Assembly (NCBI GenBank): GCA_000002445.1
Contig: AE017150.2
Coordinates: 384,001-448,000, forward strand
DNA: 64,000 bases
Direction of reading: 5' to 3'
Origin: Trypanosoma brucei
Taxonomy: Eukaryota
Shown here: in pieces, positions 1 through 62,204 of the stretch
Layout: every line of letters starts with the position of its first letter
How positions within the stretch are numbered: the first letter of the stretch is position 1
Program-made: the position numbers and the translations under genes
Notes under the pieces: model-generated
What the model saw: only the letters and a program-made list of their open reading frames with translations
Databases searched by the model: none
Told to the model about the DNA's origin: nothing

Positions 1-337
1 TATCGTAAGCCGCGGATCAGTAATTCCTCACGAAGAGAGAAAAAGTTGGCTTGAAGGCGAGCATCGTACGCGTGGAATTCACTGAGTATTCCGGATATGA
101 TGTGGCATGCTTTTTTTTTCTGCGTATTCTACTTTGTCTTGTTGGTTGGATGCAGTATCACGGTTCTGTAAACCCTTGCCACACATAATTTTAGCACGGA
201 ACGTCGCGGGGTAGAATGCAAGAAGTGTGCTCCTGATTGGTGCACATTTTGTCGAGCATAGGCCCACGACTTGTGCTGGTCACATATTTGTAGGTCTCTC
301 TCACGTTCGCTGCATGTGTTGAGAAGCCCCAACGAAG

Positions 338-805
338 TTACAGGGTGATACCCAGCACTTTCAGATTTCTCTCCTCACCCATGGGTGTGCCGTTTATCAT
401 CAGGATCGATGGTTTCCTTAGAAGCCCTCCGAACAGTGTATGTTTCGTTTTATACACGTTTAGTTGCTTGAAGGATTTATGACTCACTCTGGCCACAATG
501 CTCGGTCCTTGTTGTAGAGTGCGCTCGATATCTTCCCTGTTTGATCTCCTACACGTGATTGTCAGATGATCGGCAAAGAAACCGTGGTAACAGCTTAGGA
601 CTTCCCGAAGCCACCAAATAAGAGAGTTAGTGACTATGATGAAGGTAAGCGATCCAATGACTATTTCTTGATGACCTCCTCTAGTGAAGAATATTAGTTG
701 GGAGAATACTTTCTTTAAGCGACCTCTGTCTAATCGTTCAGGGAGACATGAAGCCGTCCAGCCATTCTGTGGGCCTTCCGCATCCAACTTTCTTATTTCT
801 TTCAT
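338..805 (-). mobile_element. Degenerate non-LTR retrotransposon reverse-transcriptase-like fragment (ingi/DIRE-type relic?), non-functional
   Basis: The minus-strand ORF contains 'RGGHQEIVIGSLTFIIVTNSLIWWL...GFFADHLTIT', which loosely resembles LINE RT blocks (RGxPQGSVLSPLLFxI ... YADD). The spacing between blocks is shorter than canonical. There is no long intact ORF in 1-2500. The call rests on motif resemblance only. Confidence 0.3.
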
Positions 806-2559
806 AAATTTGTTATGGTCTGCCGTATCAAATGATTTTGTGCTTTCAACGAAAGTGACTGGTCCGCGGTCAGTGCTGTGACGGCAATTTAATTAAGTGT
901 GATCTTGAAGCATGTCGCCAATTGCCGCATGCCCAGGAGAGGATCTAGGTTATCTGCTAGTCGGCTTCTGACCTTTCTTAGCTATTATTCTCACTCCCAC
1001 CATCTTGTCCATCGGTTTCGAAATGTTACTTGCGATTGTTACTGATCAGAAGAACGAAGTGTCCGATGGGTGTTTCCAGTTTTCTGTAGAGGGATAGTCG
1101 CCCCTCTTTTACATGTTCTGGGTGTTGTTGCCATCATAAGACTCCGGCTTAACCGCGCTAGGATCAGTTGTCTACCGAAGCGGCTCAGGTAGGTTGACGC
1201 AGTGCCATATACTTCGTCCTCTGGGGGAGCAGCACCGTTCGGAAGCTATCCTAGTGAATCCTTCAACTCGCCCACGGTTATTGGTCGAGTCCATTCATCT
1301 GGCTTTCTTTCTGGTGTTTGCATTAGAGGGGAGGCGGGAGACTTAGGAGTGTCGCGCTGATGTTTTTGCATACATTGCTACTTGATCACGAGCGTGCCGA
1401 CGCCATTTCATTGCTCGGTTGTCAACTGTAGCGACTGGGGTGACGAGTGGGCGTGTTGCAAAGACATTCTGTATAATTTTCCAACTACCCTAATCTGATT
1501 CACTCATCGTTGAGCATTTGTTCTTCTACCTTTTGACCGCAAGTGTCGTTATTAGTATTCGGTCCTCCGCGGCGAGGCGAATCGCTCATTAGTGTTAGTG
1601 CAGGCATTGTTTCTCTTTTCCATTTCGGCTCGCTCTCTGTGCCAGAAAGGCTTTTGGAGTCTTGGTTACTCGTGGGACTAGGGCAAGCGTCGCTTCCCTA
1701 ATAATTGTTGCTAACGTTTCACCGTGCGTGTGTGGATATCTTCCAAGTTGTCATTTTCTCTACCCCTCTCTTTTCCGGCGCGGTCTAACTTCCTCCAACT
1801 AGCGCATTTCTATGATAACGGGGTCCACATAGTCCGTTGTAGTGAAATTGGCATGCCATCAGGGCCAAGGCATACATCGATGAAAATGATACGATGATCT
1901 CCGTATGGAGCAGACCGTGGCGACCAGTTTGTAACATGGAAGTTCTTCGATAGAGTTGTATCGAGTGCGGAATTGATGCTACGGTCACAGTGTCGTATCG
2001 TGTGGTCTTCCATGTGTTTTCGACGGTGTACCAATTATCTTTGCACTAATGGGCTATGGAATCTTTCCTTTTAATCAGGGGGACATGTTTATCCCACGCC
2101 AGTAGGCTGGAATTAGAATACATACCAACTATATGCCGACCGGCATGAAGGAGATCGTCCGGCCCTTCTGTGGCGACTTCCCTCCTTCCTCGTGGAAAAT
2201 ATGAGGAAGTCAGTCTGTGTGTTGAAGGGATTGCGTGAAGTGTACTGTTGCATGTACAAATTCATGTCCGAAAGCCTTCGACACTGCCACCACGAGCGGT
2301 AGGTGGTCGAGAACGACAATGGATACACCTCCACCTATCGAGTTATAGCTCTCCTTGGGCGTGGCGGACGAATACGTGTAACACCGTCTTGTGCAGCTAC
2401 ACGCTCTATGTATAAGAGTTTGAAGGGGAGTTAGTGAGAGGGAATGGTGATGGTCAGGGTTTTTTTTTTTCGAGGAGTCCTCGGGAAGTGATTCAACATT
2501 TAGAAAGGGTGATTACAGGGCGCAATGGCGAAATGATGGAGACAGGAGCAGCTTATATT

Positions 2560-2834
2560 CATCATCGTTTTAGAATATGTTCATGAAACTCCACCTCTTC
2601 AGCGGGGCGAGGAACGCACACGTTCCACCCACTAAGTTCCATGAATAATAGGAACCATTCTTCTGCCAAACATTTCCAGTAAGAAGAGAGTGGCGCAAAT
2701 ATTATTCATTGAATTGAGTTCGCATAAGGTCCAGCATGATGAAAGACGTTGCCCCATTCGAAGAGTGCAATAGCGCGTCGCACTTTAAACCTAAGCGCGT
2801 GTGACTTTCCGCCGACGCCGCCTCAGTTTTGTGA
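2560..2834 (+). repeat. 275-bp dispersed direct repeat, copy A (near-identical to 13193..13467)
   Basis: Direct comparison of the two stretches shows 2 mismatches in 275 bp, both near the 5' end (T/C and C/G). Both copies end in ...GCCTCAGTTTTGTGA. Copy A is followed by AAAAGG. Confidence 0.9.
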
Positions 2835-3549
2835 AAAGGAGATCGCTTAGTTTCACAACCACCTGGGATATACTATTTCCTAGCGCCGCGAGGTGTTGAG
2901 CGGCGTTTTTCCACGTAGTCGCGTATGCAGAGATACCATTCCAAAGGGAGGCATTGTTATCACAACTATACTCGCCAATTGCACACTGGCGGAATGGCGT
3001 GCCGATGTGAGGGCGTTTCGCGGGAATGTCTATACCTTTCTGGAAACAAAATGTTACTACTTCAAAAAGATTACACGTATGGAGGAATATACTTTAGATG
3101 TGGACAAGGCGTTTTGTGTTGCTTGAAATTGTGCGAGCATAATTATTTTGACAGTTTCGGTTGAAGTTGTGCCTATACTCAAAATGTTGAGAGGCGGCAG
3201 AGGGGAGCTGCAACGTTTGTTGAAGGAGAGTGTCCATGTTGTGGGGCGGAAGTTGCAAAGCTTAGTGGAAATGAACATATTAGAGCGCGGCAAGCAGGAT
3301 AATTTAGCATGAGAAAAGTCTCCCCTTTTGGCCAACACCTACTCCCAGCAAACCAAAACTACACCAATAGACTAAAAATCGTTACCAAACCTTCCTCGTA
3401 CTGCCATCGATCTCACTAGCATTATTCAATACGAGTGGGTGCGTAACCCTAAACGATATAAGTCCAACACATCAAGCGCATACGCCGCAGGGTGAGAAGA
3501 GCTCCCAGTTAAGCGGAGTAAATAAGAAATGTGCGTGTGGGTGGATCTT

Positions 3550-4740
3550 TTACTTCCTCAGTGGTCTGGACAACCATTTTTGGTTCACCGCCTTATCAAT
3601 GGGACACACCTCAACGAAGCGTTTCAATGATAATTTCTTTCTCTTCGGGTTGTATAACCAAACCATTTGAGAGCGCAAATATTCCTTTGCTTGCTGGCGC
3701 CCATTCGGGGTCGCAAGCTGGCGATACCACGATAACACCCTCATAGACCTTTGCAGGCCCAGCTTCTCCCAATTGTTTGGTCCCGAATGGACAATGATGG
3801 AGGAGAAGTTTGCCTTGAGTGGGGCCCGGACAAACCACCTGGAGGTATAGTCAAGGGACATAATGCCTCTTCGTAGTAATAGTTTTTGGCTTACGTGCTG
3901 TGGTCTCGTGATGCTCCACATGAACACCACCACCCACATACTCTGATCGCACCACCACTTGTAGCTTTCTCTTTTGATGCTGAAGAATACTTTCAGGGCT
4001 TCTTTCAGCGCCCATACTCGTGCAATCGCGCCACCGCCATTGAGGTAGGCTTTCTTCACCCCACTGCCAGCGAGCCCTCCAGCACCTCCTTCGCTCGCCA
4101 GCTGCCTCATCTTCTCATACATATGTTCACAGCGCTTGTCACTTTTTTTGTCCTCATCCCCCAGCATAATATACGCTTGTGGAGCGTAACACCCCCTTTC
4201 GGTCGCAAAAATCAACGGGGAAGACATCACTCCCTGTAAGATGGCCGTTTCGCTGTATGCCTCTGGATTTCGTGGTGAACGCTGCAAGAAGGTCTGTATT
4301 TCCCTCTCCCTGAACTTTACTTCTGTAAAAAATGTGTCGGCACCATCAAACGCGACCACGATATCCTCATCCCGCATATTCCCCCTCCTGATATATTCCT
4401 CTATCCACGTCCACCTCCTAACATGCCCGTACCACCCCCCGTTCCCCACACTAACGACCGTTACATTGGTGAATAGGGAGCTAACCAACATTCTACACCA
4501 CCCCGGGGAAAATCTTGTCTGCGCCACGACGAAATGCACTTTGGCTACCAGCTCTCCACCAGGCCCTTTCGTGTCGTGCTGGTTATTTTTCAACAATACT
4601 GCTACCAAGCAAACGCTCAACAGCACCATGTTCCACACCACAATCGCTATCCCAACGCGGCATTCGAAATGGGCATCTTTTCCATTTTTTCTCTTCCTCA
4701 TATCCCTATAAAAGTGGAAAAACAGGTGATGCACACGCAC
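3550..4740 (-). CDS. Subtelomere-associated type-II membrane protein (ESAG3-like or glycosyltransferase-like; family not verified), intact 396-aa ORF; likely true start at internal Met (4701)
   Basis: The ORF is uninterrupted. It has a short basic N-tail (MRKRKNGKDAHFECR) followed by one hydrophobic anchor (IAIVVWNMVLLSVCLVAVLL) and a large downstream domain with a 'DEDIVVAFDGADTFF' acidic motif. A decayed paralogous fragment lies 0.7 kb upstream. Its position next to a VSG-like gene is typical of trypanosome subtelomeric gene families. Confidence 0.5.
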   Translation of the reverse strand: MRVHHLFFHFYRDMRKRKNGKDAHFECRVGIAIVVWNMVLLSVCLVAVLLKNNQHDTKGPGGELVAKVHFVVAQTRFSPGWCRMLVSSLFTNVTVVSVGNGGWYGHVRRWTWIEEYIRRGNMRDEDIVVAFDGADTFFTEVKFREREIQTFLQRSPRNPEAYSETAILQGVMSSPLIFATERGCYAPQAYIMLGDEDKKSDKRCEHMYEKMRQLASEGGAGGLAGSGVKKAYLNGGGAIARVWALKEALKVFFSIKRESYKWWCDQSMWVVVFMWSITRPQHVSQKLLLRRGIMSLDYTSRWFVRAPLKANFSSIIVHSGPNNWEKLGLQRSMRVLSWYRQLATPNGRQQAKEYLRSQMVWLYNPKRKKLSLKRFVEVCPIDKAVNQKWLSRPLRK

Positions 4741-5447
4741 ATATATTTATCTATATCTATATCTGTATATATTTATATATCTACAGTAGTGTGTTTGTGA
4801 AGGTTGAAGTGGTTGCGGCTGACTTACTCTAACCCTTCGCAGCTATTCCAAATCCGCGATTTTGTGTGTCGGGGGTATAGACATTTTAAAAATATTTCGT
4901 AGAAATATTCTAACGGGTCTCGTAAGTTGTTAGTCTTTTCCCCCCAAAAGTAATTCTAGGATCATCTCCGAAAGTTATTTCATCTTGCTTACGGTTATAC
5001 CGCCAGAGTTTGGTGGTGAATTTTCCTATTTTCCCTTCCCAACTTTACCGTTTCCAAGCAAAGTGCAGAATAGGATCCATCACATCGAGTTTATCGTAGC
5101 AATAATAGAAGAATTCCGTATTGAAATCAAGACTCACTAGGCTTCTCCTCATTATCAATTTTCTTTCCACATCCTGGATTGTGTGACACTCCAAACAAAA
5201 AGGAGGTTCCAGATACTCTGATCACACCACCATTCGCTTTCCCTCAGGTTTTTTAGAGATTTGTAAGATTGGATAGGCTCTTTATACGCCCAAACGCGAC
5301 CAACCATCCCACCACCGTTTAGATACATACGCTACGAGTGTGGCACCTTCAGCATCGCCCTCGCAGCTGCGGAGCGGATTCTTGCTTTCATATAGAACCA
5401 TGCGCACCTTTTCCTATGTGGCCAGCTGAAGGGCCCTAAAATCATCT

Positions 5448-5675
5448 TTAACTGCGGGCATAGCAATCCACTTCCGTTGCGAACACAAATGGAGACGTTT
5501 GCCTTTCTCTAAATATTTCCCTTTCATTCAAGTATTTTGGAGAGTGAGGTGATCTTTCAATGAATTTCGAAAGTGGTGTCTCCATTTGAACTTTGTTGCT
5601 AAACATTGTATTTCCTCCGTCAGATGTAACAACAATATCCGAGTCGCTAAGGCGCTCGCGCTGTATAAACTCCAA
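5448..5675 (-). pseudogene. Decayed fragment paralogous to the 3550..4740 membrane-protein gene
   Basis: The translated 75 aa 'DSDIVVTSDGGNTMFSNKVQMETPLSKFIERSPHSPKYLNEREIFRERQTSPFVFATEVDCYA' aligns with 'DEDIVVAFDGADTFFTEVKFREREIQTFLQRSPRNPEAYSE...SPLIFATERGCYA' of the intact gene. The flanking frames are broken. Confidence 0.55.
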
Positions 5676-8600
5676 CAGTCACTCAGGCCTCTTTGCATGC
5701 TGATACTCTCTCCCAAATCCTATTGTGTCGACACTAACGCTGTTGGTACGATTGCTGTTCACTCATCTTTCCGCCTTTATAATGTCAATCCGAAAACCAC
5801 CATCGAGAACAGTAACGGATATCGCCTTACGCACCAATTAGTTACACAATTTCCACTCAATTTCAATCCGACTTTCCGCTGCAATTAAATGTCTTTAAAC
5901 CTGTTGGTATCTTTTAAGCTCATCGACACATTTGTGATTCTTACTTAAAAATAAAGATGAAACACACCTCGCGGCGGCGGGGGCTCCTTTTTGCTTTGTC
6001 TGTTTTCCGCTTCGGCGCAGCCGACCCCAACTGAGTCACCTGCTGTATACCTTTCAATTTCATGCTGGTGTGATAGTTTTCGTACCATATGCAAGCACAT
6101 AATTGTTTTTCTTGTTCTCCACAGCAGCTATACCGCTTTGCGTCTTCGATGCCAAGCCTGTGCTTTGTCGGTTCCCCGAATTCCCCTGTCAAAGTGAAAT
6201 TCAAAGAAAAAAATTGACTGTCACTTGTGAAAGGTTTTCTATCGTTATGTCTTGGCCAGTTCCATGCTCTCCCCGCTATTCCTTGGGGAAAACCCGTCTT
6301 GCTGTACCATCCTCACGCGCGTTCCACACGGGCACTTTTCCTCTTTACCCACAGTTTTCGTTGCATACTTCCCCTTCATCTGTCCAGCTAGCATTTCCGA
6401 CGCATATTCACAACACGACAACACTCAGGGTCAGACCCACGTCCATTACAGCCCCACAATTCCTCGGATGCAACCACTCCTGTGGTCCTCGTGCCTGGTA
6501 CTTCCGCCTCCACCTATGTCGGCGTCGCCGCGCATAGCCACTGTTAGGTGCCAACAAGCAGAGTTCTTCGGATACTTGTGAAGGAGCGTGGTGGCTTCTC
6601 GATATTATCTCCCTGCAAATAGACCTTTTCCATTATCTAACTTTTTGTGTGCTGGCAAATTAAGTCGTACCTAGTGGAATCGTCCCCCTGTTTTGTTTGC
6701 GCCCACCCAAGGTTGCTAGTCTGTTGCGGAACCTTCTGCTCCGATGGAGGCTTTTGCCTTGGTCGAGATGCTGACATTTCTCCCCTCTATGTTTTCTGTA
6801 GGTGGAGAATACGACATTACCAGGTTTATTGCAACAATACTCCAAATGGTTTGCATCAAACATTTCTGTTATGTTAAACAGCGCTACGGGTGTTTCCATC
6901 AGGTTCATCATGCAGACCAGCACGCCAAAAGCGCCACTGTTCTCCATGCCCTGGATGCGTTGCCTCGTTACTTTGTTCAGTTGGACACCCACTACAGAGA
7001 CAATGCGTCACCCTGTTCATTACACATCTTTAAACAACCTTCACTTCCCCCCAAGTTTTTCACCTTCTTCAAATGTGCATCTGGAAAATATCATAAACAC
7101 GGCACCACCAGGGTTTTAACACAGGCAAGTAAAAGCACTTTGCCCTGGCAGAGGGTTCTACAACTAGAGGCGCACATTATGGCAGGCGCGCCGCACTCCA
7201 TCCATTTAGTGAAGCACTGCCTTCTTTCGCTTCTCAGTCTTTCAATATCACTGCAGAATTTTGATAACGCTGATTTTTTTTGATTTGAATTTTCTTCATG
7301 CCTAGTCTGAGAGAATCTCCCGCCAGTGAGGGCTCCGGCAAATCCAATGGAGAACCATAAAGATATTTCAGCAGCGTCTCGGAGTTGTTGATGCCGCTGA
7401 AGACGCATCCCCTAGGACATATCAATAGGAAAACAGTGTTCCATTAAGATACGACTTGTCCCCGTCCTGTGGTGTAGCCGGGGGGCAAAATCGGTTCTCA
7501 ACAGGTGTGGAACCCTGCCAGCTCTGGGTCTCTCGCAAAATACGGGCAGCTAGTCCTTTCACGACATTTATGTGGTTGCCACAGCCAGAGGGTGTTTTCT
7601 CTAAAACATGGTTGCTCCACGGTGCTGTTAGACTCCGTAATTTCTGCACCCACGTGCCGCGATGAGACGGCTACCGCTACTCCAGGGTGTACCACCCACG
7701 TTGTCAGCGGGAAATACACGCTTACATTCTCATATATATGGATGTACTGTCCTCGATTGGGGGCTTTCTCTAACGCTTCACAGTGGAAACGTCAAATACA
7801 CTCCCTAACTGCGGGGCCGTAAAGGGTAACTCCTGTTCAGTTACGCGATTCCGATGGTCACACTGTTGGGTCTTTAGTTGCTCTTAAACTTCTGTCGCGG
7901 TGTCGGGCTTGGCAGAATCGAAACTGAAGAACTCATATATCTATCCCCGTGCACCAAACGTAGAGTTGTGGCATCACTCACTGCTGCCTTGTCTATTTAA
8001 TGTTGTGTACTCCATACAAGGGCGTTGCCGTTTCAGGGTAGGTGTTCCTCTAACGCATGAAAAAACTGAGCCCCCCTTTTGTCGCATACAATCATCTTTG
8101 TGAGTTCACCCCCAAACCATAGTGGTGGCAGACTATCCAATCTCACAACTACTGGCCTGTGAGGTGGATTCTCTTCACACCTATCAGCGCGAGTGTGCTT
8201 ATTGCTGTGTGGATTCCGTGTTTGATTCTTTTTGATATTGTGCTGCCTCCTCTCGAACACCATTTTCTATTGCGTTCTAGGCATAACAAGCATTATTGCA
8301 ATCTCTGAATGGTAAAAGCTCTGGGACAATGTTGTTGAGTTTAGACGTCTGGGGATGAAGTCTACTTCGTCTGCTTTCTTGAAGCGAACCATCATGCCAC
8401 TGAGTGATGACATTTGAGCAAGCATTTCAAGCACTGGGCGTACTTGACACTCACCGAGTTTATAGTCCTGGCTTGCAAGTTGCTTCTCTCCGAGGCATCG
8501 GGCTCTTGTGTGCGAAGCCAACCACCCATTTGATTAATCCGCGAAGCAGCAGTACGTGCGTTCTGGCAGATTCATCACTGTTTTTGCTCCATCCTTTGGG

Positions 8601-9055: not shown

Positions 9056-10390
9056 TCATGGAAGGAAAAATAGCCACAACGGAACACTGATTTTGTCTGC
9101 TTGGCTTGCTAATGGCGGTCTTTTTATATCTATGCAGTTTCCTTCCCGTTTGTTGCAACCTGTGTGCGTACATTCTGCTTGACTTTCGCACTCACTGCAT
9201 TCAACGCCGGAGCTAGGACCCTTTTGCCCACGTCCCTTGTTACATGTTGTGCCATCTTTAAGTTGAGAGATTCCGGATCGGGGCATTTGGCTTAGTTTGC
9301 TTGTTTTTATACTCTCAACATTTCTCAGGATATCCTTCAATTTTTTCTCAATTTCTCTTAACTTATCTATCCTAGTAGCTGCTTGTTGCAATACCAGGAG
9401 CCAAGGGACCGCAGGGTTCTCATTACCTACCATCTCCGTTGGATATTGGACGCATTTTCCGTTACCTGGTTGCGTGTGCCCAGTGCATCCGTGCTGGGGC
9501 TCCCCGCTCGCTGCTCCGAGAAATGTTTTTGTACCTTCCTTCTGTGCTGTAGAACGTTTAAGGACCTCCAAAAAAACCTTAGTGGCGCGTGAGAGGGAAC
9601 TGCTGGATAGTTTCTCGTTGGTACCGATCGACTTGCATCTTTGGGCCAGATGTTTCCATCGAGTGTTCGATTGCTCTACTGGCTTCCATGGATCTTCATT
9701 TGCACCGGTGCTGCAGCCTTCGCAGCATGCCTGCTGCCGATCGTTCGGCATGGGAGAACCTCCGCATATGCACAACAAATCCACGATCAACGACTTTCCT
9801 GCCCACACACTTGGTTGTCCACCTTTTCCTCCACAAACTTCCACAGCTTCCAGGTGTTGCTTTATCATAACATCAGCTTTGTTCGACCCACTGAGTGCGT
9901 CACTTAAACTCTTGTTGATCGGGCTCATTTTCAGCTCCAGCCACAAATTGTTGTTTGTTTTCATGCACGTGTGCGCGTTTTCTACTGCTTCTTTTATTTT
10001 TTCCTTCCTTAGTATGTCGAAGTTCGCTTCAACCCACTGAATATACCGAGTCTTGTCACCTTTAAGTTTGGTTCCCGCTTCTTCCCAGAAGCTCCAGTAG
10101 CCTCCTCCCCCTCCACCTTCGCCTTGCCGGCCTACCTGGACATTTTCTACGTCTTCCGCCTCGGACAAACTTTGAAGCCCAACAGCCAAACCAATGGCTC
10201 CAATATGCCTCGCTGAGTCTTTGACGCTTTCTTCGAGTTGCTGCGTTTCCAGATCTTGGGAAAAGTTTATCATAGCACATAAGGCTCCAAACTCTTGTTC
10301 GTTCACCAGGGGCTCTCTCGCCCCCACTACACAACTTAACTGACCTATTACTGTCACCACTAAGGGAACCCAACACCCAGTCGCCTTCAT
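9056..10390 (-). CDS. Variant surface glycoprotein (VSG)-like gene, possibly atypical or pseudogenic
   Basis: The 444-aa ORF has an N-terminal signal peptide (MKATGCWVPLVVTVIGQLSCVVGA) and a long helical N-domain with sparse Cys. Its C-terminal domain is Cys-rich (CNKGRGQKGPSSGVECSECESQAECTHTGCNKREGNC) and ends in a hydrophobic GPI-signal-like tail 'DKISVPLWLFFLP', matching the VSG consensus ...PLWLAVLLF. The tail is shorter than canonical, and no 16-mer TGATATATTTTAACAC was found in the 3' flank. Confidence 0.6.
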   Translation of the reverse strand: MKATGCWVPLVVTVIGQLSCVVGAREPLVNEQEFGALCAMINFSQDLETQQLEESVKDSARHIGAIGLAVGLQSLSEAEDVENVQVGRQGEGGGGGGYWSFWEEAGTKLKGDKTRYIQWVEANFDILRKEKIKEAVENAHTCMKTNNNLWLELKMSPINKSLSDALSGSNKADVMIKQHLEAVEVCGGKGGQPSVWAGKSLIVDLLCICGGSPMPNDRQQACCEGCSTGANEDPWKPVEQSNTRWKHLAQRCKSIGTNEKLSSSSLSRATKVFLEVLKRSTAQKEGTKTFLGAASGEPQHGCTGHTQPGNGKCVQYPTEMVGNENPAVPWLLVLQQAATRIDKLREIEKKLKDILRNVESIKTSKLSQMPRSGISQLKDGTTCNKGRGQKGPSSGVECSECESQAECTHTGCNKREGNCIDIKRPPLASQADKISVPLWLFFLP

Positions 10391-12956
10391 CTCACCTCTC
10401 TGGAGTGGCGAAAAATGAATAGTATAATTATTGAAGTTTCCAATCTTCAGCAGAACGCAATATTCAGTGAAAGCAAGCTGATCTCTTTCCCAATATCTGA
10501 TAATAGAAAATAAAAATTTAGTGTTTATATGTTACACTCAATTCCATTATCAATCGTAGAGACAATTATAATTTAAGCAAGGTTGAAACGCTGACGGCAC
10601 AACTTCCAGTAGATGGTAATCGCCTTGGCTCCACGCATTTGCCATCCATCCGCTCACGTCACGTTTCCCCTTTCAGGCTCTTGCATGCTTCCTGTGTTTA
10701 CGACCCTCACATCTCGGTAGTGGGGAATCACTTCCCTTACGGCTACCATTACTTTCAGGTGCGATATTACTGGCGGGGGAAGTTTTGTTTTCGTCGTGGC
10801 TTCCAGCTTTATTTTCTATATTGGTGGTTGTTTCGAGTACCAGTAATGAAACTAGTTTAGTTTCAAATTTTAATGAGCTTTATACGTGCGCACAAGTTGC
10901 AGATGGGTTTGATGATTACTTTCCCTTGTTCCTGGATTCAGTGACCTGCTGAGTTAACTGGTAAATTTCGCTTCCTGTTTCCTTCAAACACTTCTCCCGC
11001 GCCCTCAATACGTTCGCCCTGCTTTCTCCCTGGTCGAAATCAAGCATTTACTTTGTCCCGTTGTTACTGCAATGAAGATGCTATTCGCAAATTCCCACTG
11101 TGCCGCCGGCTTTACCGGCACGGCCTCGAATACGTGCAGTTTTCCATCGTTCGAATACATGTAGGACGTGCTCTTCAGAGCTGTGCAAAAGTCTTTTGTG
11201 TTGGTCACAGCAGTGCAATTCGTGCTTGCTGGATCTCTTGCTTTCGGTTTAATACACGCCTCCTTGAAGTCCATCTTTTTGCGCCGGATACTTTAATATC
11301 CAGTTCTCCGTCTCGCTGTTGTGCGCATTTGCTGCAAGAGACTCTTTTGTTAGGCTCCCCCAAGGTCCTTGTCGCCCACATTAGCACAGGTTGGGGCTCA
11401 GGTCCAATCCGCCCCACGTTCCTGGTTGGGCGCATCCTTGCTCTGAGCTCTGATTCCCTCCTGCTGGGACGCCGTTTGCTTGTTTGCTGCCATATTTTGA
11501 GCGAACAGAACCACCGTGATTTTTCGCTCTAGTTCTTCGCTATTGAAAGATCTTTTTTTTTTGATCTTTTAATATGTGTAGCTGGATACGTTAGCTTTTC
11601 CTTTCATTCCTCAATCAGAGATTTGTTTTTTCCTCTCTCCGTCTCCCACGGGTGCCTGCTGTTTCCTCCAAAAAATGTCAGTCAGATTTCATTCCTTCCA
11701 GTTCCGTCCCACTCACCATGTTGTGGATACTATTCGTTCACTACGGTTTCTCTTCTTCCTGAAACACCCCACTGCGCTTTTGATAGGCGTGCTGCCCTGA
11801 CCTTCATAGCGACTTTGTTTTTTAGTCGTTTCCGCCTTATTGATGTTGACCACCCCTTTCCGCAATGCTATCGGTATGCGCATTGCATTAAACTCCACGC
11901 TGTTGATTATGTCTGCAGTTCTCAGTTCCTCTGCCACGGCCGTTGATGACACCACCATTAGAGCAACATCATGATTCACATCTTCTGTTTCCCCTAACCC
12001 TAGCAACTGCCTTCTCAGCTAATGCTTGTAAATAACCACATCCACAGTGGAACCCATATGCTGCTCAACAGGAATAACGTACGGTTCCGGCAGGTAAACA
12101 CACCCATCATACTTCTCTTTTCAATGCATTTATCCAACCAATATTTTCCTTCCGATTATACGCACAACCCCACAGTTATCCAGTTAGCAAATGAGGAATA
12201 TTGTTGGAATACGTTTCTATACTGCTGCCAAAGCTTCAGTAAGGTAATGAATGGGATTGCTAGGACCCGTTATTACATTTGGACGACTCTCCGCCTCTGC
12301 CCATAAATATAAAGTATAAACTTGTCGTCCCTGAGGCCCACTTCAATTGAACGTAAATAAATAAATGAATATATGCTTCTATCTGTAACCCTCAAAAGAG
12401 CATACACCGCACATGTGTTTCCAACTCATCGAAAAGCTCTGTTTAATAACACGTTTTTTTTTAAAAATTCCCTATTAATGCCACAATCCCATTAAATCTA
12501 CGTGCCACTAAATTTTATGATAAAGTAACTTCAAACACCCAAATGACAAATTAACCCTCAGACAATGAATATCTTAACAATATTCTGTCCTAAGCCCACG
12601 AGTTAAAATCTCACCAACAGTTAAAAATTACAACCCCACGCCAACTTCGAATGACTTCCCGTGGGAACTACAATTTCTGCATAACTTTTCCCGTGTTGGC
12701 TATTCTCCTCCCTACATTAACACGCCAAGCTCCAATTATTTAACTCCCGAGGCTGCAAACAGCATGGACATTTCAGACAAGATGGTGGAAGTTAATGTCC
12801 GGTACAACAATTAGCAATCGGCTTGTTGTGCTAAAAGATTTCAGACCTTCCATGTTTGCATTGAAACTTTTGGGAAAGGTAAGTCGCCGTAACGGTGATG
12901 TAAACATTAGGGGTAAATCACCGGCATGGCGACTGCCTTATGAAAATAAATAATAT

Positions 12957-12984: not shown

Positions 12985-13192
12985 CTCGCAGGCTAAATTC
13001 CTAACAACTCCCGTGTCATTTAGGATGAGGATTGATATCCTCACCTCAGTTTGCGAAGCAGCTGAGGCAAATACGTTTAAACAAAGAAACATTTATTCAA
13101 TTGTTCTCTTGCTGACTGACTGACAGATGCTCACTGAATGGGGCAAAACAACAAGAACAAGAACAAGAACAATAATAATAATAATACCGTCG

Positions 13193-13467
13193 CATCATCG
13201 TTTCAGAATATGTTGATGAAACTCCACCTCTTCAGCGGGGCGAGGAACGCACACGTTCCACCCACTAAGTTCCATGAATAATAGGAACCATTCTTCTGCC
13301 AAACATTTCCAGTAAGAAGAGAGTGGCGCAAATATTATTCATTGAATTGAGTTCGCATAAGGTCCAGCATGATGAAAGACGTTGCCCCATTCGAAGAGTG
13401 CAATAGCGCGTCGCACTTTAAACCTAAGCGCGTGTGACTTTCCGCCGACGCCGCCTCAGTTTTGTGA
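13193..13467 (+). repeat. 275-bp dispersed direct repeat, copy B
   Basis: It is identical to copy A except for 2 positions. It is immediately preceded by (AAC/AAG)4(AAT)5 triplet repeats (13147..13188) and immediately followed by an A11 run (13469..13481). Confidence 0.9.
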
Positions 13468-14869
13468 TTAAAAAAAAAAACGACGTTGAAAGTTTTGATG
13501 ATCGAGCTGTTAAGCACTGAGGTTCCTTTTGGTGAAATATATCTGAAACAATCGATAACAGCAGAAAATAAATGATATGCCTGACAAAATAAACGGAAGC
13601 ATGTGATTCCGTTTATCTTCAAAAGGCATTGCTTTGAAGTACACGGCAGTTTGCATAACACCCCCCCCCCACCCCTCTGCAACCCGGTTGCTGAAATGGT
13701 GATGTTTATGGAGTCGCCGAAGTCGTTTGCTTTTGAGGTGTCTCCTCGCCACGGAAGGAAATAATAATAATAATTAAAAAAAAAAAAAGAGGACTTGTAC
13801 AACCGCATCGGGTAAAACGCATAAAGTACCTTCTAAATGGACAGCTGCTTCATGTTTTGCATTTGGGAGTGAGAAAATGTGGATACGGCAATAAAGTCGT
13901 GAAAGGCTCTACGGAAAGTAAAAGAGGTTTGTAACGGTGCGAAAATGCATTGCATTGGCGCAGGCAAGAGACAGACCTTCCACGAATAACTCGTCTATGA
14001 GAATGGTTTTGTACCTTCTCTTTCTTTCTTTTTTTTTTTTAAATTACCCCATACGGTTATTAGTGAGAAACTCACCACGTCAAATACGCTGCTGCGTAAA
14101 GCATTCCCCTCCCCCCACCGTTGGTGTTTCAGCGGTACTGATATCTTCCATAGTTAAAGGCAAGATATCCAGAGATTGTTGGAGGTGTGTGTGTGTGTGT
14201 GTGCAAATCGAGTAAAAATAATAATAATAAGAAACGATATATCAAGTCCTTCCATTCCCTTTCTCGACACTAATGTGCAAACACGACTGCATGTTACACT
14301 TTTATCCGTGCATATCATCAATCCACTCCTTTTTCATTTTTTTTTTTTAAACTGAAAGAGTTCTACCTTCCCCTTTAATTTTAAATATTCGATTGGTTCT
14401 GATTTGTTTTGGACATTACCCGCGCTTAAATGTGAAGAACAGAGAGAACAGAAGAGAACTGTGGCTGCGTGTGTGTATGTGTGTATGTGTGTGGACAATT
14501 TACCATTAGATAAGTTCCTGAGGTACACCCAGTGGAGAAGAAACAAACATCATTGTTGATAAAGCGAGCATGCAAATTCACATTTACATATGCCTTGTAC
14601 AATGGTAACAGTAGCAAAGAAGAAGGAAAAAAAAAGGGAGGGGGGGGGGAAAGATGTGCCAACAAATAGTCGATGCCGTTTTTTTTCTTAAAAAAAAAAA
14701 CAACAACAAGAACAACAGTACAAAGTTGCCCACACGCACGAAAATGGACATCATCCAGCCGATTCAATGTTTCGTTGCAACTTCCTCCCACCGCGATTTG
14801 GACAACCATTTGAGGGTTGTGTGATTCTTTGGATTTTCAAATTACATACATTTTGATCTTTTGTTTTCT

Positions 14870-19882: not shown

Positions 19883-21244
19883 TTAATTACTGCTGCCGCT
19901 GCTCTCAAAGTCATCTTCATACTCATCACCGCCGCTCACGCGACCCGACGGTTTGTGAAATGACATTCGGCTTTGCGGCCGTTCCGAATTCTCACAAATT
20001 GGTGGGATGCTCGGCGTCTTCTCTGATCGGGTTGAAACACTGCTCGGCTGAAGAAGCGGTCGCCGCGCCAGCGCACTTTTGGGCCGTTGCGGTGACATTT
20101 TTTGTTCAGCCAACGCATCCGTCACACCTTTGCTCTGCTCCAACCAAGAATCCAATTCGGAGGTCGCGACGCTAGTTTTTGCATTAGTGTTATTATTATT
20201 ATTATTGTTATTATTGTTATAATTATTATTGGTACTACCGCTGCTACAACCGTCACCACCACTCCCACTGGTGGATGCACCCATGGACCTTTTCTTGGCG
20301 CTGATGGCCTTCTGCACTATTTCCTCACCAAATATCTGTTTATAATATTTGGACTCCAGACAACTGAGTGGAACAGTGGAAAGATTGTTCTGGACGTAGG
20401 AACTACGCAGTGCGCGCCTAAGTGTTGGTCGTGTTACCGCGGATTTCTGTAAAAATGAATGAACCAAATCAATGAGAGGCGAGGAGTAACCATCTTCCGG
20501 TGTGATGAGTTGATACTCTCCGCGCGAGATCATCCGCATGAGTGTTGGTGCTGATGTGGAGTTGAAGGGGCGTTTCAGCATCATGAGTTCATACAAGGTG
20601 ACGCCGAGACTCCATATATCAGCCTTTCCATCATATGCCCGCTCCTCACAAAGTTCAGGCGCCATGTAAAGCGGCGAGCCACACGCCATCTTCGCCACCC
20701 CGCCAAGCTGATCGAGCACTACCGACACGCCAAAATCTCCTATACGAACGGTTCCGTCTTCGAAAATGAAGATGTTCTGTGGCTTAATGTCCCTGTGGAG
20801 GGTGCGCTGGTCAACATGCAGGAAATTCAATCCAACCAACATCTGAATCATAAGTGAGGCTACAAAACTCTCTTCTTCCTTCTTGTGACGGTACTGGAGC
20901 TGTTCAATACGCTGCCCCAAATCACCACCGTTGCAAAATTCCATGATGATGTACACCATGAACTTACCGTCGTGGTAGCGGTCGAGGAATTGCACAATGT
21001 TGGGGTGTCCCATAGAGCGGCGAAGTATACTCACCTCCATATCCAATGCCTTCATCTCTTCATCTTTTTTCATTGTTTGCATATCCACATCCTTCACAAC
21101 AACAAAACGATCACCACCTCCCTGCGCCGTTTCGTCCGCCTGCTCGTAAAGCGTTGCGCAACCGAAGCTTCCCTTCCCGAGTATGCGCTGACGCTTAAGT
21201 TTCCATATTCTGTTTTCGCCACGAAGCTCAAGGAGATCAGCCAT
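19883..21244 (-). CDS. NEK-family serine/threonine protein kinase
   Basis: The product has kinase subdomains GKGSFGC (Gly loop), VVVK, HRDIKPQNIF, DFG and SPLYMAPE. Its C-terminal tail contains an Asn-rich low-complexity run (NNNYNNNNNNNNNNTN). The tracked ORF starts further 5' at a GTG (ME KKKKK...). The first in-frame ATG is MADLLELRG at 21244, taken here as the start. Confidence 0.8.
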   Translation of the reverse strand: MADLLELRGENRIWKLKRQRILGKGSFGCATLYEQADETAQGGGDRFVVVKDVDMQTMKKDEEMKALDMEVSILRRSMGHPNIVQFLDRYHDGKFMVYIIMEFCNGGDLGQRIEQLQYRHKKEEESFVASLMIQMLVGLNFLHVDQRTLHRDIKPQNIFIFEDGTVRIGDFGVSVVLDQLGGVAKMACGSPLYMAPELCEERAYDGKADIWSLGVTLYELMMLKRPFNSTSAPTLMRMISRGEYQLITPEDGYSSPLIDLVHSFLQKSAVTRPTLRRALRSSYVQNNLSTVPLSCLESKYYKQIFGEEIVQKAISAKKRSMGASTSGSGGDGCSSGSTNNNYNNNNNNNNNNTNAKTSVATSELDSWLEQSKGVTDALAEQKMSPQRPKSALARRPLLQPSSVSTRSEKTPSIPPICENSERPQSRMSFHKPSGRVSGGDEYEDDFESSGSSN

Positions 21245-21865
21245 AAGTGAAGGGGGGATTTTACCTGAGCTACTACACCTATATGCAACGAGTGCAGGAG
21301 ATGTGTGCGTATTTGTATATGCCGCTTGTGTCTGTTCTTGTTCTTTTTTTTTCTTCTTTTCCACTTTCTTGGCTCTTATTTCTGTTTAAAATATTTAATA
21401 GAGCTCTATACTGATAAATATAAATACAGATAAATGTATACGTGTATTGTGTGACTATACGGCTGATTGTTAAAGTAACGAAGAGGGAAGGGAACACAAC
21501 CGGTCTTGTGGTTTGAGTTCACTTATAATCCCTATGTAAGTATCTTCTGCTTTGTTTGTAATAGAAATTTATTGTTGATTTATCTATTATTTATTTGTTT
21601 CCTTCCCCTTCCGCTACACCGTCTTTCCTTAGACGTCACTTTCGCACAAAAATGAGTGTAATTTAACGTCGTGTTGCGGATTCTTGTTTTCGTTGCTTCT
21701 GGCGTTTGTTTGTTTGTTTGCTTTTTTTTTTTTTAAAATGCAAATATCTGATACTCGACACACCGTAGTGATTGCGTTGTCTTTCACCACTTGCTTTTCC
21801 TTTTCCTTTTTAATATATTTTTTCTTTGTAATTTCCGCTAACAGTAGGACAATACAATATAAGCA

Positions 21866-29665: not shown

Positions 29666-30436
29666 TCATTCTAGGGCCATGCTGCAGTTCCTAAAAAAGA
29701 CAAAAAGAGTTTCTGCTGCTTTTGCTGCAAGCGCGAACATTCTTGACAGATCCTTTGGTGTGATGGGCCGACTATATGCGGAGGACCGCGGTCGCGCCTG
29801 AACCCTACTTGCCAAAACGGCCTCACCGCCGGTATTTGTCAGTACAAATGTTGCTGAGGCATAACTTCGCACCTCATCAGTCGACTCCTCAACTGCCGTC
29901 GGATCCAAAAAAATCTCCGGTTCGCCTTCATTTCCTGACGCCTCCGGATTACACATAATAAGACTAACCGCCGCAATGGTTGAACGACATGGCACTCCGG
30001 CATCGAGTAGTGCACACATAATTGCATTGGACGCCACAGCGAAAAGCGCGCCATCGTCCATCAACACCGTAACGTGAGCCTCCAGAACGCATCGGGGGAA
30101 GCGGTCCAAACAAACGATGGCCTCCACGAGGGAAGTGAGAAATTGTTTTAACTCACCATCCTCACACCGTTCCCGCTCCCTTCGCTCCATCATAATGAGG
30201 CGACCCGTGCCACCTTCCTGTGGAATACGAGCAGCGCGGTTGACGTGGATGCATGTGGTGCAACGACGGTAATTTTCCTGCCGTGCTGCCGTGGGTCCAT
30301 TAATTGCAACAGTGACAGCCGTAAGACCTTGTGAATACCACGCCGAACCGTCAAACTGACTGAGGTCAGAAGTGCGGAGTTCCTTTCCACGCATTTCACG
30401 CGCCGTCCGGCCATCGCGCCTCGATATTGTTGCCAT
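29666..30436 (-). CDS. Exosome RNase PH-like subunit (Rrp41-like)
   Basis: 'SRRDGRTAREMR...QFDGSAWYSQGLTAVTVAINGP' matches the RNase PH N-terminal motif (RxDGRxxxELR...ADGSA...GP). 'LMDDGALFAVASNAIMCALLDAGVP' matches the Rrp41 core (LQADGGTYAACVNAATLAVLDAGIP). The start is taken at the internal Met (MATISRR). The tracked ORF extends 59 codons upstream through a hydrophobic low-complexity leader. Confidence 0.7.
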   Translation of the reverse strand: MATISRRDGRTAREMRGKELRTSDLSQFDGSAWYSQGLTAVTVAINGPTAARQENYRRCTTCIHVNRAARIPQEGGTGRLIMMERRERERCEDGELKQFLTSLVEAIVCLDRFPRCVLEAHVTVLMDDGALFAVASNAIMCALLDAGVPCRSTIAAVSLIMCNPEASGNEGEPEIFLDPTAVEESTDEVRSYASATFVLTNTGGEAVLASRVQARPRSSAYSRPITPKDLSRMFALAAKAAETLFVFFRNCSMALE

Positions 30437-30687
30437 GAGAGTTACACTGATATGGGGATTAGCAACGTGTGGAAACAACAAAATAATAATAATCACCCCC
30501 GCAAGAGAGAGCCCGAGAGGGCTAAGAGGCTTTGATGTTGTTTTTGTTTTTATCCTAGTCTTGTTTTTAGAAGCGCTTGACACGCCCCTTATGTGTATGA
30601 AAATAAGGGACACCCCTGCCTTATGAGGGGTCAGTCACTTAATGTTGGCAGTTATACTCCAGAAGTGAAGATAACATACAAATAAAT

Positions 30688-49364: not shown

Positions 49365-52300
49365 TCACAGCCAAGGTGACCAGCCGTGAAACATTTGGGC
49401 CAACAGTTCCGTGTTCTGCGCTGTTTGGAGTAACTTCTGTACATGCGTGCGCACGCTGAGCAATTCGCCAGATTCGTAGCCTTGAATTTTTTCCATTACA
49501 CGGGAAAGTACCCGCTCTGCATCGGCGTATGTTGGCTTCTTTCGGTGCACACCCACGCCTTGCTGCCGTGCTGAGTTGGCGCCACTACCGTTACTGTCCT
49601 GTTCATCTTGTTGAGCATTCTGCTGCTGCTGCTGCTGCTGTTGCGGGGGTATAATTGAAACTGCCCAACGAGAAAGCGGGTCATGCGCACAGGCTGCGAG
49701 AATTGTGGTAAAAAACTCCTTCTGCCCGCGAAGTAGTTGAAGTGCGGCTTGGCAGTGGTGGCGGAACGGTCCCTCCGTCCCCTGCACACCAAAGCCATCA
49801 ACAATATTACGGGTTAGTCTAAAGGGAACCAACTCCGGCACGTGCAACAACTTTCCTTGATCAAAGGCGAAACCAAGGTCAATGTGCACCAACTCAGCGC
49901 GACCCACGTGGAGGAGTAAATTGTTGGCATGACGGTCGCCAAGGCCGAGTATGTAGCCGAGCATGCTTGATGCCGCCACACTACGGGTGTACGCTTCCCG
50001 CCGCTGCAACCACTCCTGCGGTGTAAAGAAATGCTCAAGGAAGAAATAATGGAGGGCGGGACTGAACTCTGCATAGAGGGAGAGTAGCACAGCGTGCTTT
50101 TGCGTTTTGCTTGCCTCATTGAGGCGCGCTCGACACACTTTCGAGGTGATTTCAGTGGGAAAGTACCGCTCATGAGCACCGGTAGGGTTCTTACTGCTGC
50201 TACTGTTTAAGTAACGGTCCAGTGGTATGGTACCATCCACCCACTCAATCAACCCAACGGTTGGGGCAAGGGGTACAACATTGTAGGTATATATGTGGAG
50301 TTGCCGCGTTAAGGGGTGCTTCTCAAACAAGGCATTTGATAAGCCAAACACTTGCTGAATTAGAGAATCTTGACGAAGATCATCCTGAGATTTAAGCAAC
50401 TGCTGGACTGTGCGACCATCACTTAACACACAGCGGAGCACCTTTGGAACGTTAATCCCCCCAGGCGTTCTGAAAGTGCTCTTGTACTTCATAACTCGCG
50501 GCACTTGAGCCCGTTGCTCATCTTGCTCGTGCCTCAGTAGGGACGCTGACAGCGCAGAGTTAGTCGCGGGAACAGTCAGCGTGGGAGGCGGGATAGAAAG
50601 ATCTTGCAGCGCGTCGCTGATAAGCATAAAAGTTTTCGGAATATTGCACTCCACATTGTCAGCAGCATCTGCGCGGTGAAAGGCCAGTTGTATATAGGCT
50701 TCGGAAAGGCTCTCTGCATCAGTGATAAACTTCCTTCGGCACTCAAATGCAGAGGCGTCCTCTGCGTCATTACTTGTTTTCTTACTGCTGCCGGTGCTCT
50801 TACTTTTCCCCCAAGGTTGTGCACTCGGTTCTTTAAGGGAAGTTAGAATACGTCTGGCGATAGCAACTTTTTCCTCATCTACCACATGCACAACTCCACC
50901 ACTGGAGGCACCTTTACCTCCGGTGTCTCCCACACCTGGGCCAAACACATGTCCATTCGCAAGCGCAAGAAGCGGCCATACGGCACGTAGTGGCTGCTCC
51001 GTTGCAACTCGGTGCACCAATGTTTCAAGGTTTTTATTATCTAAAGACGTGCCCAGTTGCGCCACCAGCTGTGAGTAAAGGGGAAGAAACTTGTGCAGAG
51101 GCGTGTTGCTTATGGCCTTCGATATGACGTTGTCCGTAGCGGGAGAGGTGTCTTTTCGCACATAGCTTTCATCTTGATGTAACCACAGTGACACAAAACC
51201 AAACACCGCGAGGATGTCATTATCATCACCATCATGTCCACTCAGTTGCAAGAACCGCGAGTAGCCATTCAGTGCACTTCGCCTGTACAGAGCGTAAGAT
51301 TCCGCTTCCTCCACAAACTCCCTCTCATCACAAGCATGCTCTGCAATGAGGCCTGAAATACGGCGCCGCAAAAGATTCTTCTCCTCTCTGCTCACCCCAG
51401 ATTTGGATAGTTGCTCTTGTTTTTGCTGCAGCTCGGTGCGTGTGTGGATCAAGCTCTCCATACTTTTTTGCATTGTGCGATAATTGTAACTGCGTAGCCG
51501 CTCGGCAATGTCACGTGTGAGAGTATGACATAACCTGGCTAGTTGCAGGCTGCAATATCCAGTCCGGTCGTCAATGGCGCATCGAGTAAAGAAGGGATCA
51601 CGCACTATCTGTGAAAGGGGAACCAGTCGAGCCTCGGTAACCCAAGCAACGAGCTGCAAAACGACAGGTGGCATCAGCGAAGGATTCTTTGGAAATGATA
51701 GTCCAGGCACACCCACAGCAAAAGGAGAAAGGAACGAAAACTGTGGATCTCCAGAAGCTCGTACCTGCGGAGAAGCTGGCGACGGTGCTGCAATGTTCTG
51801 AAGAATAGCAATTGCGCGATGTGGGTAGCCGCAAGCAAACTCCGCACGGGCATGTACGAGAGCTATAAGAACGGAGGCTGGTAAACCACATGAGCTCGTG
51901 GCGGCCTGCAGTACGGGCTTCAGGTTGCAATCCGGGCCGTTCGAGCCATGTGCCTCAACACTACCACCGCCAACACCGCCATCAACCACTGTTGAGAGCT
52001 CTGCGTAGGACGAAACCCATTGCCGAACCAAAAGCGGTTTGTTCGAGCACAGTGCTCGCTCACTGCATACTTCCAGATGCGTAAGCCACCACTGTGGTTG
52101 TTTACAGACAACACAGAGTTGCTGTTGCACGCTGTCCAGAAGTTGAAGTTCGTCATACGGCAGACGCACGTGCGCGAGGGAAGTGCCAACCCATCGTGGA
52201 GGTCTTGCGGAACCCACTCGAATTTCATGCTTACCGCAGTCCTCAATTTGCTGCAAAGCTTCCGCCCGCAACATTATATACCGCCAGTTCGAGGGATTAA

Positions 52301-61300: not shown

Positions 61301-62204
61301 CAAAGAGAAACAGATGTAACAAAAGTTGCGCGAATTCCTGACCACAGACTGGGGCCAAAACCTCCGACTGTAAAACCTCGAGCGCGCAACTCACAAATCC
61401 GTTGAGGGGAACGGCGTTCTTCCACAGAAGTGGCAATACTGCGTGGTTTGGAGGCACTGCCCAAATATGGTGCGATGCCTCTCCCCAACCCTCACCACCT
61501 CCAACTGGTGCCACGTGCTGCGGTGCCGATTTGAAGGATGAAGATGTGAAATTGTCCCTCCCATCTCCTCCATGATGATGTTTTGCCGTGTCGAAGCCGG
61601 ATGACATGGAATGCGTATCACCGCCCCCACCACCCACGGAGCTGCTGCCCGTCCCAATAAGCATAGAGGAAAAGGAAGAGGAAGAGGAATGGGCAGCGGT
61701 TTGTTGTTGTTGTTGAACTACCGACGCAGGCAGGTTATGATGGACGGTCTCAATTAGCGCTCGCCATGGACGGGCGAAGTCGGTGCGCAGTTTTCTTCCT
61801 CTATTTTCTGAATAAGCGCTAGTTCCTGACTCGTCCTCAGCAATGTTCACACGGCCCAATGCCGCCATTTGCCGACGCTTTGTTACCGCCTCGTTATACT
61901 GCTGGAGTGCAGGGCGAAGGACACTATTCATCACCACGAAAAGAATGTTGTTTGCCACATGTTGACCGAATAAATCCTGAACACACATGCAACTCTGTTC
62001 CACCGTGTTGTCAAGGAACGTGCGAAGATCTTGCAGAAACTTGGGTGCCTCCCGTATAGTTGCCCCTTGAAGATCATTGCAGATCGTTGTAAGGCTCCTC
62101 TTAAGTGCCTCCTTGTCTAATGAAATACTCCGCTGCGACACTGCCGGATGCCGTCCCCTAAACAATCCAAGCATTGAGGCATCTTGTGAGGCTGACATAA
62201 TCAC
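49365..62204 (-). CDS. ATM: ATM-like phosphatidylinositol-3-kinase-related kinase (PIKK), 4279 aa
   Basis: The C-terminal PI3K/PI4K catalytic domain has [12 protein letters not shown] (catalytic loop) and [42 protein letters not shown] (activation loop). This is collinear with human ATM GLGDRHVQNILI...[42 protein letters not shown]. The terminal FATC is ...[13 protein letters not shown], against ATM ...SRLFPGWKAWV. A giant HEAT-like N-terminal region precedes the catalytic domain, and the ORF is a single uninterrupted 12.8-kb frame. Confidence 0.9.
   Translation of the reverse strand: [4279 protein letters not shown]
49621..49644. repeat. (CTG)8 trinucleotide repeat inside the ATM CDS (encodes poly-Gln between kinase domain and FATC)
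   Basis: CTGCTGCTGCTGCTGCTGCTGTTG on the plus strand is (CAG)n in the coding sense, giving [14 protein letters not shown]. Confidence 0.9.

Follow-up and report, generated by a model that had tools for sequence, protein, structure and literature searches.

The VSG-like gene at positions 9056–10390 of the 64-kb stretch of Trypanosoma brucei chromosome 2 analysed here (hereafter the window, to which all positions refer) is the already known and annotated VSG-related (VR) gene Tb927.2.2060, where VSG stands for variant surface glycoprotein. With a probability of about 0.88 we regard it as an intact, expressed member of the VR family (surface-phylome family Fam09) that descends from class-B VSG ancestry and lies outside the system of antigenic variation. 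A previous interpretation made from the letters of the DNA and a list of open reading frames (ORFs), here called the sequence-only reading, had described the gene as a silent array-type VSG or a VSG-related gene, possibly a pseudogene. It was a correct recognition of a gene that is already annotated and partly characterised.

Identity, conservation and published expression of the gene

The ORF is unbroken from its ATG (10390) to a TGA (9058–9056) and encodes 444 amino acids; the upper bound of 10560 in the sequence-only reading corresponds to the ORF plus 170 nt of upstream flank.

9056..10390, minus strand: complete VR coding sequence, Tb927.2.2060, 444 codons plus TGA at 9056–9058 (ORF list, exact protein identity)

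The encoded protein is 100% identical to XP_951521.1/AAQ15663.1 of chromosome 2 of T. b. brucei TREU927, which is annotated as "VSG-related, putative", and this bears out the VSG-related option that the sequence-only reading had held open. It is also 100% identical to SCU66850.1 of T. equiperdum OVI, and its 90% cluster contains 444-aa orthologues from T. b. gambiense DAL972, from EATRO1125 ("VSG 1125.435") and from Lister 427 ("VSG 1267"). Because the cluster includes Lister 427 VSG-1267, which a published table of the bloodstream-form surface proteome equates with Tb927.2.2060 of family Fam09 (PMC4587319), we identify the ORF as Tb927.2.2060. The designation VR/Fam09 therefore combines an exact-sequence look-up with the Fam09 label in that table. 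Published gene numbers agree with the order of genes in the window, the NEK kinase Tb927.2.2120 corresponding to the kinase ORF at 19883–21364 and RRP41B (Tb927.2.2180) to the RNase PH ORF at 29666–30613.

Five strains or subspecies have an intact 444-aa version of Tb927.2.2060, with 98–100% amino acid identity and 0 to 8 differences among the five sequences. No sign of a pseudogene (frameshift, premature stop, missing start or missing end) was found in the ORF of the window or in the other four sequences, and the suggestion that the gene is a pseudogene can be set aside. Between T. b. brucei and T. b. gambiense the coding sequence is 99.5% identical and the flanks are 98.8% identical.

The supposition that the gene is silent is contradicted by published data on bloodstream forms, one of the sources in which the sequence-only reading had proposed to look for expression. 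The level of Tb927.2.2060 mRNA in cultured bloodstream forms exceeds that of log-phase procyclic forms 3.1-fold (PMC2771046). When Lister 427 bloodstream forms that express VSG-2 were surface-labelled, the protein was represented by 76 peptide-spectrum matches and 15 peptides (41.2% coverage), including a fluorescein-modified peptide, and showed 1781-fold enrichment (PMC4587319). The authors of that study presented their data as the first to show translation of VR proteins and their association with the surface. According to the published work, Tb927.2.2060 is displayed constitutively and at low level on bloodstream forms, whichever VSG is active. Our literature search found one main-text paper for Tb927.2.2060, the proteomics data being in supplements.

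The encoded protein and its relatives

From its N-terminus to its C-terminus the protein carries the following features, several of which the sequence-only reading had already listed.

10322..10390, minus strand: predicted signal peptide, about residues 1–23, MKATGCWVPLVVTVIGQLSCVVG with the predicted cleavage site before the following A (from the sequence)
9317..10324, minus strand: class-B VSG N-terminal domain, residues 23–358 (Pfam, PDB sequence match, AlphaFold/Foldseek, cysteines)
10100..10117, minus strand: Gly6 run, G92–G97, an imperfect GGN repeat (from the sequence; low-confidence AlphaFold loop)
9134..9199, minus strand: 4-Cys module C398-x8-C407-x4-C412-x6-C419, with an extra Cys at 401 and Cys383 further upstream (regular-expression match)
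9059..9109, minus strand: glycosylphosphatidylinositol (GPI)-signal-like tail ASQADKISVPLWLFFLP, residues 428–444, candidate omega residues S429 and A428 (tail comparison and published PredGPI)

The signal peptide and the long VSG N-domain proposed by the sequence-only reading both held up. The N-terminus is hydrophobic (MKATGCWVPLVVTVIGQLSCVVGA), with a published SignalP probability of 0.973 (PMC4587319), and in the N-domain profile check that had been suggested the Pfam family VSG_B (PF13206) matched residues 23–358 with E=1.9e-52. By PDB sequence search the closest solved structure is that of the metacyclic VSG1954 (mVSG1954; E=4e-13). An AlphaFold model of the protein, built on 33 homologues, reached a mean predicted local distance difference test (pLDDT) score of 75.8 and a predicted template-modelling score (pTM) of 0.71. 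When the model was compared with the PDB using Foldseek, the top 26 matches were all class-B VSG N-domains (mVSG1954, VSG3, VSG11 and VSG615), with a probability of 1.00 and a target-normalised template-modelling score of about 0.46–0.60; ISG65 and the haptoglobin-haemoglobin receptor ranked far below them. Cys38, 186, 207, 209, 222, 252 and 302 are invariant in the 33-sequence alignment.

The glycine run remarked on by the sequence-only reading is present as G92–G97 within GEGGGGGGYWSF. It is kept in all four orthologue sequences and is absent from the paralogues P0005 and P0006, and it looks like a lineage-specific low-complexity loop. The segment that holds it (residues 88–95) has a pLDDT below 50 in the AlphaFold model, which suggests that the loop is probably disordered.

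The Cys-rich C-domain of the sequence-only reading stood in part. Six cysteines fall within residues 383–419, preceded by a linker (residues 379–397) that the AlphaFold model places with low confidence, and the C-x8-C-x4-C-x6-C spacing is that of the last 4-Cys module of the canonical VSGs P0024 and P0027. A phmmer search with the C-terminus alone returned weak matches only, to VR-type paralogues. The result with the Pfam model of the VSG C-domain is taken up when the evidence is weighed below.

The protein ends in the hydrophobic stretch that the sequence-only reading had pointed out (...PLWLFFLP), and the terminal uncharged stretch, ISVPLWLFFLP, comprises 11 residues. The accompanying claim that the tail is shorter than the usual 17 or 23 residues is only marginally right, since the uncharged stretch is no shorter than the 10–11 residues found in canonical VSG tails of the 17-residue class among the homologues (TSPLLLAFLLF in P0010, APLLLAVLLF in P0022). 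The difference from canonical VSG tails lies in the omega/spacer region. The candidate omega residue S429 would give a 15-residue signal. The four closest paralogues likewise end in short hydrophobic tails (LSLFLILL, LALFLLL, LKFFLLLG and LKLFFLVF). As for GPI predictors, by which the sequence-only reading had wanted its proposal judged, the published values for Tb927.2.2060 are a PredGPI score (1 minus the false positive rate) of 0.996 and 0 transmembrane helices (PMC4587319). Neither this score nor the N-domain match refutes the proposal in the way that the sequence-only reading had laid down.

A word-indexed protein search returned Tb927.2.2060 itself only, and the paralogues were obtained from an exhaustive representative search. 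Apart from the protein itself, the four top-scoring representatives, with E=8e-60 to 7e-39 and 34–38% identity, are chromosome-internal and lie on chromosomes 3, 9, 11 and 3; two of them are annotated as VSG-related, one as "VSG, putative" and one as the hypothetical Tb927.3.2500. Canonical VSGs start at E=3e-30, with an identity of at most 29%.

Flanking elements and genomic neighbourhood

Elements that accompany canonical VSG genes were sought on both sides of Tb927.2.2060. The 16-mer of the 3' untranslated region (UTR) of VSG genes, TGATATATTTTAACAC, whose sequence we verified against the literature, has no match with three or fewer mismatches 3' of the stop codon, as the sequence-only reading had said. 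The sole 3-mismatch match in the window lies at 12828–12843, 2.4 kb upstream in gene sense, and 0.9 such matches are expected by chance.

10521..10553, minus strand: 33-mer called "70-bp-like" by the sequence-only reading, not a feature (nhmmer, local alignment, positive controls)
10497..10516, minus strand: putative trans-splice acceptor, pyrimidine-rich tract tttttattttctattatc followed by AG at 10498–10497 (read from the sequence)

The sequence-only reading had also seen a single degenerate 70-bp repeat upstream of the gene. The 33-mer in question, TTGATAATGGAATTGAGTGTAACATATAAACAC, does exist at 10553–10521, 131–163 nt upstream of the ATG, but its resemblance to a 70-bp repeat is due to chance. 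A 70-bp profile built from 32 real repeats of the bloodstream expression sites BES1 and BES4 (S1 dataset of PMC4858185) gave nothing significant when the window was searched with nhmmer at maximum sensitivity, the best match being at 14186–14227 with E=0.43, and the 33-mer was still absent from the matches at E<=1000. When the 77-bp consensus was aligned by Smith-Waterman with the 310 nt upstream of the gene, the score was 16, where the mean of 822 equal-sized windows is 16.5 and 48% of them score at least 16; the 33-mer has only TGATAAT in common with the 70-bp consensus. In positive controls the same profile gave a real repeat 63 bits and, in 20/20, 20/20 and 19/20 trials, recovered copies in which 20%, 30% and 40% of the positions, respectively, had been mutated. 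The 33-mer lies directly 5' of the pyrimidine-rich tract and AG at 10498–10497, and this putative acceptor would give a 5'UTR of approximately 106 nt.

The array-type location suggested by the sequence-only reading does not agree with the surroundings of the gene. All of the ORFs of at least 200 aa in the window that have a Pfam or database match sit on the minus strand, and they include a protein kinase, a Rab-type GTPase, a SNAP protein, an RNase PH protein and a histone deacetylase. Tb927.2.2060 is thus chromosome-internal, in a same-strand run with housekeeping genes and not in a telomeric expression site or a subtelomeric array. The same gene run contains a very long ORF of 4279 aa (49365–62204, minus strand).

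Two further elements, both ESAG3-like, follow Tb927.2.2060 on its strand, and a direct repeat brackets all three.

~4970..5768, minus strand: ESAG3-like pseudogene, frameshifted, downstream of the VR gene (tblastn, frames -3, -2 and -1, about residues 73–347 of roughly 390)
3550..4701, minus strand: intact ESAG3-like gene, 383 aa from the ATG at 4701, 100% identical to P0130, "ESAG protein, putative", TREU927 chromosome 2
2560..2834, no strand assigned: direct repeat copy B, 275 nt, brackets the VR/ESAG3 island; also in T. b. gambiense
13193..13467, no strand assigned: direct repeat copy A, 275 nt, 99.3% identical to copy B; start-to-start distance 10,633 nt

The pseudogene, with at least two frameshifts, separates the VR gene from the intact ESAG3-like gene. 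The protein encoded by the latter has no Pfam domain; it is 34–49% identical to ESAG3-like proteins, with homologues in T. conorhini and T. grayi at 34–37%. Within the window nothing but this pseudogene and this gene comes after the VR gene on its strand, and there is no ORF longer than 155 aa in positions 1–3549, the window's final 3.5 kb in gene sense. The placement of the VR gene at the edge of a housekeeping polycistron by the sequence-only reading is therefore roughly right. GC skew is positive in positions 1–4000 and negative over nearly all of the rest of the window, which is compatible with, and does not prove, the end of the minus-strand polycistron in that region or a strand-switch region just past the window. 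The order of genes at the T. b. gambiense chromosome 2 locus, which extends approximately 0.9 kb past the window start, is the same as in the window. "VSG/ESAG islands" have been described in chromosome cores (PMC2854126), and the locus of Tb927.2.2060 fits that description.

The 275-nt repeat is sharp-edged and encloses the VR gene together with both ESAG3-like elements. Homology between the copies does not extend past the repeat ends, and both copies occur in T. b. gambiense. An Rfam scan of the whole window gave no matches, so that no known RNA corresponds to the repeat. The repeat could have remained as a scar when the island entered the core, or it could serve as a substrate in excision or amplification. 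A microsatellite at 13147–13187, reading (AAC/AAG)n and then (AAT)n on the plus strand, adjoins repeat copy A; the 70-bp profile has no match there, and the (AAT)n triplet run is 70-bp-repeat-like but antisense to the VR gene.

In T. equiperdum OVI the contig that carries the VR gene, CZPT02000629.1 (1–10647), consists of the repeat-bracketed unit in circularly permuted form. The contig is 14 nt longer than the repeat spacing and contains a junction of the type X-end/repeat/X-start. That assembly was made from 2x150-bp reads with Velvet (k=33) and SSAKE extension (PMC5278650), an approach that cannot resolve a 275-nt repeat. A tandem duplication or a circle in T. equiperdum was considered and set aside as less likely, the likeliest explanation of the permuted contig being an assembly artefact in which the repeat was collapsed.

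Competing readings and comparison with known systems

Taken as an expressed VR gene of class-B VSG ancestry, Tb927.2.2060 has lost, or never had, the elements that serve VSG recombination and mRNA stability (70-bp repeats and the 3'UTR 16-mer, respectively). RNA polymerase II (Pol II) would transcribe it polycistronically together with its neighbours, and the mRNA would be trans-spliced at the putative acceptor approximately 106 nt upstream of the ATG. The protein would enter the endoplasmic reticulum by means of its signal peptide, may fold as a disulfide-rich helical bundle of the class-B VSG type, with a short linker and then a single small 4-Cys knot behind it, and would then receive a GPI anchor near S429. 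Our best guess as to its role, held with low confidence, is that of an invariant ligand-binding protein or an accessory protein embedded in the coat, because other derivatives of the VSG fold (the transferrin receptor and Fam1) have gained new roles.

Several observations weigh against this account or limit it. The C-terminal 81 aa have no match to the Pfam VSG C-domain (PF10659) even at E<=10, where the canonical P0011 scores 8e-23, and the C-domain is accordingly VSG-like in layout while its homology to the canonical C-domain is unproven. The VSG GPI rule calls for omega to be S, D or N, with S at omega+2, K at omega+7 and a signal of 17 or 23 residues (PMC11298655); the tail ...RPPLASQADKISVPLWLFFLP contains no S, D or N with S at +2 and K at +7, and both the GPI anchor and the omega site are predictions. 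The T. b. brucei and T. b. gambiense coding sequences differ at 7 nucleotides, 5 of them non-synonymous and 2 synonymous (a crude ratio of non-synonymous to synonymous rates, dN/dS, of about 0.7), and because 7 substitutions are too few to infer selection, purifying selection on the gene is not demonstrated. Transcription of VR genes by Pol II is an inference rather than an experimentally established fact, and the papers examined show no function for any VR protein.

Of the rival explanations the expressed but functionless relic ranks highest, improbable as we judge it to be. According to this explanation an old copy of a VSG was caught up in a Pol II unit, where it is transcribed and translated while its sequence drifts neutrally. 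The crude dN/dS, from so few substitutions, gives no sign of constraint, the coding sequence is barely more conserved between subspecies than its flanks (99.5% and 98.8%), and the literature contains no published phenotype or ligand. Yet the ORF is intact in five sequences whereas an ESAG3-like copy approximately 3.3 kb away has acquired at least two frameshifts and decayed. Every family-invariant cysteine has been kept, the peptide coverage and the 1781-fold surface enrichment are strong, and several VR paralogues have also been retained and detected. The silent array-type VSG or pseudogene of the sequence-only reading, usable only as a donor for segmental (mosaic) gene conversion, fares worse and is very unlikely. 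The type-B N-domain, the entries "VSG 1267" and "VSG 1125.435" in the VSG catalogues of Lister 427 and EATRO1125, and the ESAG3-like gene and pseudogene next door, a mix also seen in subtelomeric arrays, would all suit such a gene. However, the gene has no 70-bp repeat, even a degenerate one, and no 16-mer; it belongs to a same-strand gene run in the core whose members are kept as neighbours in T. b. gambiense; its 444-aa ORF is intact and 98–100% identical in five strains; and its protein was found on bloodstream forms expressing VSG-2. Its nearest relatives are chromosome-internal and of the VR type, and with canonical VSGs at most 29% identical there would be little homology to support mosaic formation, which leaves the donor role unsupported.

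Equally hard to credit is a usable "atypical" VSG, able to supply a protective coat once it was placed in an expression site. Such a gene would explain why the layout is VSG-like throughout, with a signal peptide, a class-B N-domain, canonical spacing in the 4-Cys module and a predicted GPI signal, and one paper likens the structure of VR proteins to that of canonical T. congolense VSGs. Tb927.2.2060, in contrast, is without the recombination and expression elements, the VSG C-domain model does not pick out its C-terminal region, its GPI signal departs from the VSG rule, and its sequence is invariant across strains, so that hosts would meet it in every infection. More speculative than the expressed VR gene we favour, and on balance unlikely, though less so than any of these rivals, is a two-part extension of it: that Tb927.2.2060, hidden in the VSG coat, may bind a molecule of the host or vector as an invariant receptor or binding protein, a possibility we raise because the VSG-derived transferrin receptor sets a precedent, and, separately, that the repeat-bracketed VR/ESAG3 island may be a cassette that came into the core by recombination and is able to leave in the same manner.

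The gene, the VR family, its lack of 70-bp repeats, the mRNA and the presence of the protein on the surface of bloodstream forms have all been published already, and the locus adds nothing new on the function of conserved, non-variant surface proteins with a VSG fold. Interest in invariant surface proteins stems from their potential as receptors or as targets for vaccines or diagnostics.

Among known systems, canonical class-B VSGs (VSG3, VSG11, VSG615 and the metacyclic VSG1954) share with Tb927.2.2060 the N-domain fold and the conserved cysteines, as well as the succession of signal peptide, N-domain, Cys module and GPI-type tail, with a hydrophobic tail as long as that of the 17-residue class. 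Unlike them, Tb927.2.2060 is at most 29% identical to canonical sequences and is found at neither a telomeric nor a subtelomeric position; a 70-bp repeat and the 16-mer are both missing. It also lacks a Pfam C-domain match, deviates from the VSG rule in its omega region, is invariant between strains and is present on cells that express a different VSG. Of six features by which a canonical VSG gene was judged, four (70-bp repeat, 16-mer, GPI rule and location) are missing from Tb927.2.2060. A second group, comprising Fam1 (Tb927.6.1310), ESAG2 and ESAG6/7, resembles Tb927.2.2060 in consisting of VSG-derived, GPI-linked proteins of low abundance on the surface or in the flagellar pocket of bloodstream forms, encoded by conserved genes and not by the variable archive. 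The members of that group differ from it in other ways: Fam1 is a separate family without a VSG-type C-terminal domain, the transferrin receptor ESAG6/7 derives from type-A VSGs and is located in expression sites, and ESAG2 belongs to a different family, Fam13.

The closest system is the VR family itself, whose definition we took from later papers that cite the founding paper. VR genes, of which there are 36 in TREU927, form family Fam09 of the cell-surface phylome (for example Tb927.5.130, Tb927.5.110 and Tb927.3.5680), and PMC2771046 describes them as chromosome-internal and without 70-bp repeats. Like them, Tb927.2.2060 has a class-B VSG N-domain, is chromosome-internal, has no 70-bp repeats, is conserved between subspecies and has been seen on the surface of bloodstream forms alongside other VR proteins. 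Compared with its VR paralogues it has lineage-specific traits, namely the Gly6 loop (absent from P0005 and P0006) and a C-terminal Pro, and its last Cys loop reads CNKREGNC where the paralogues have C-[ED]-W-x-G-x-x-C. Nothing sets Tb927.2.2060 apart from the family, and it shows every property of VR/Fam09 that could be tested.

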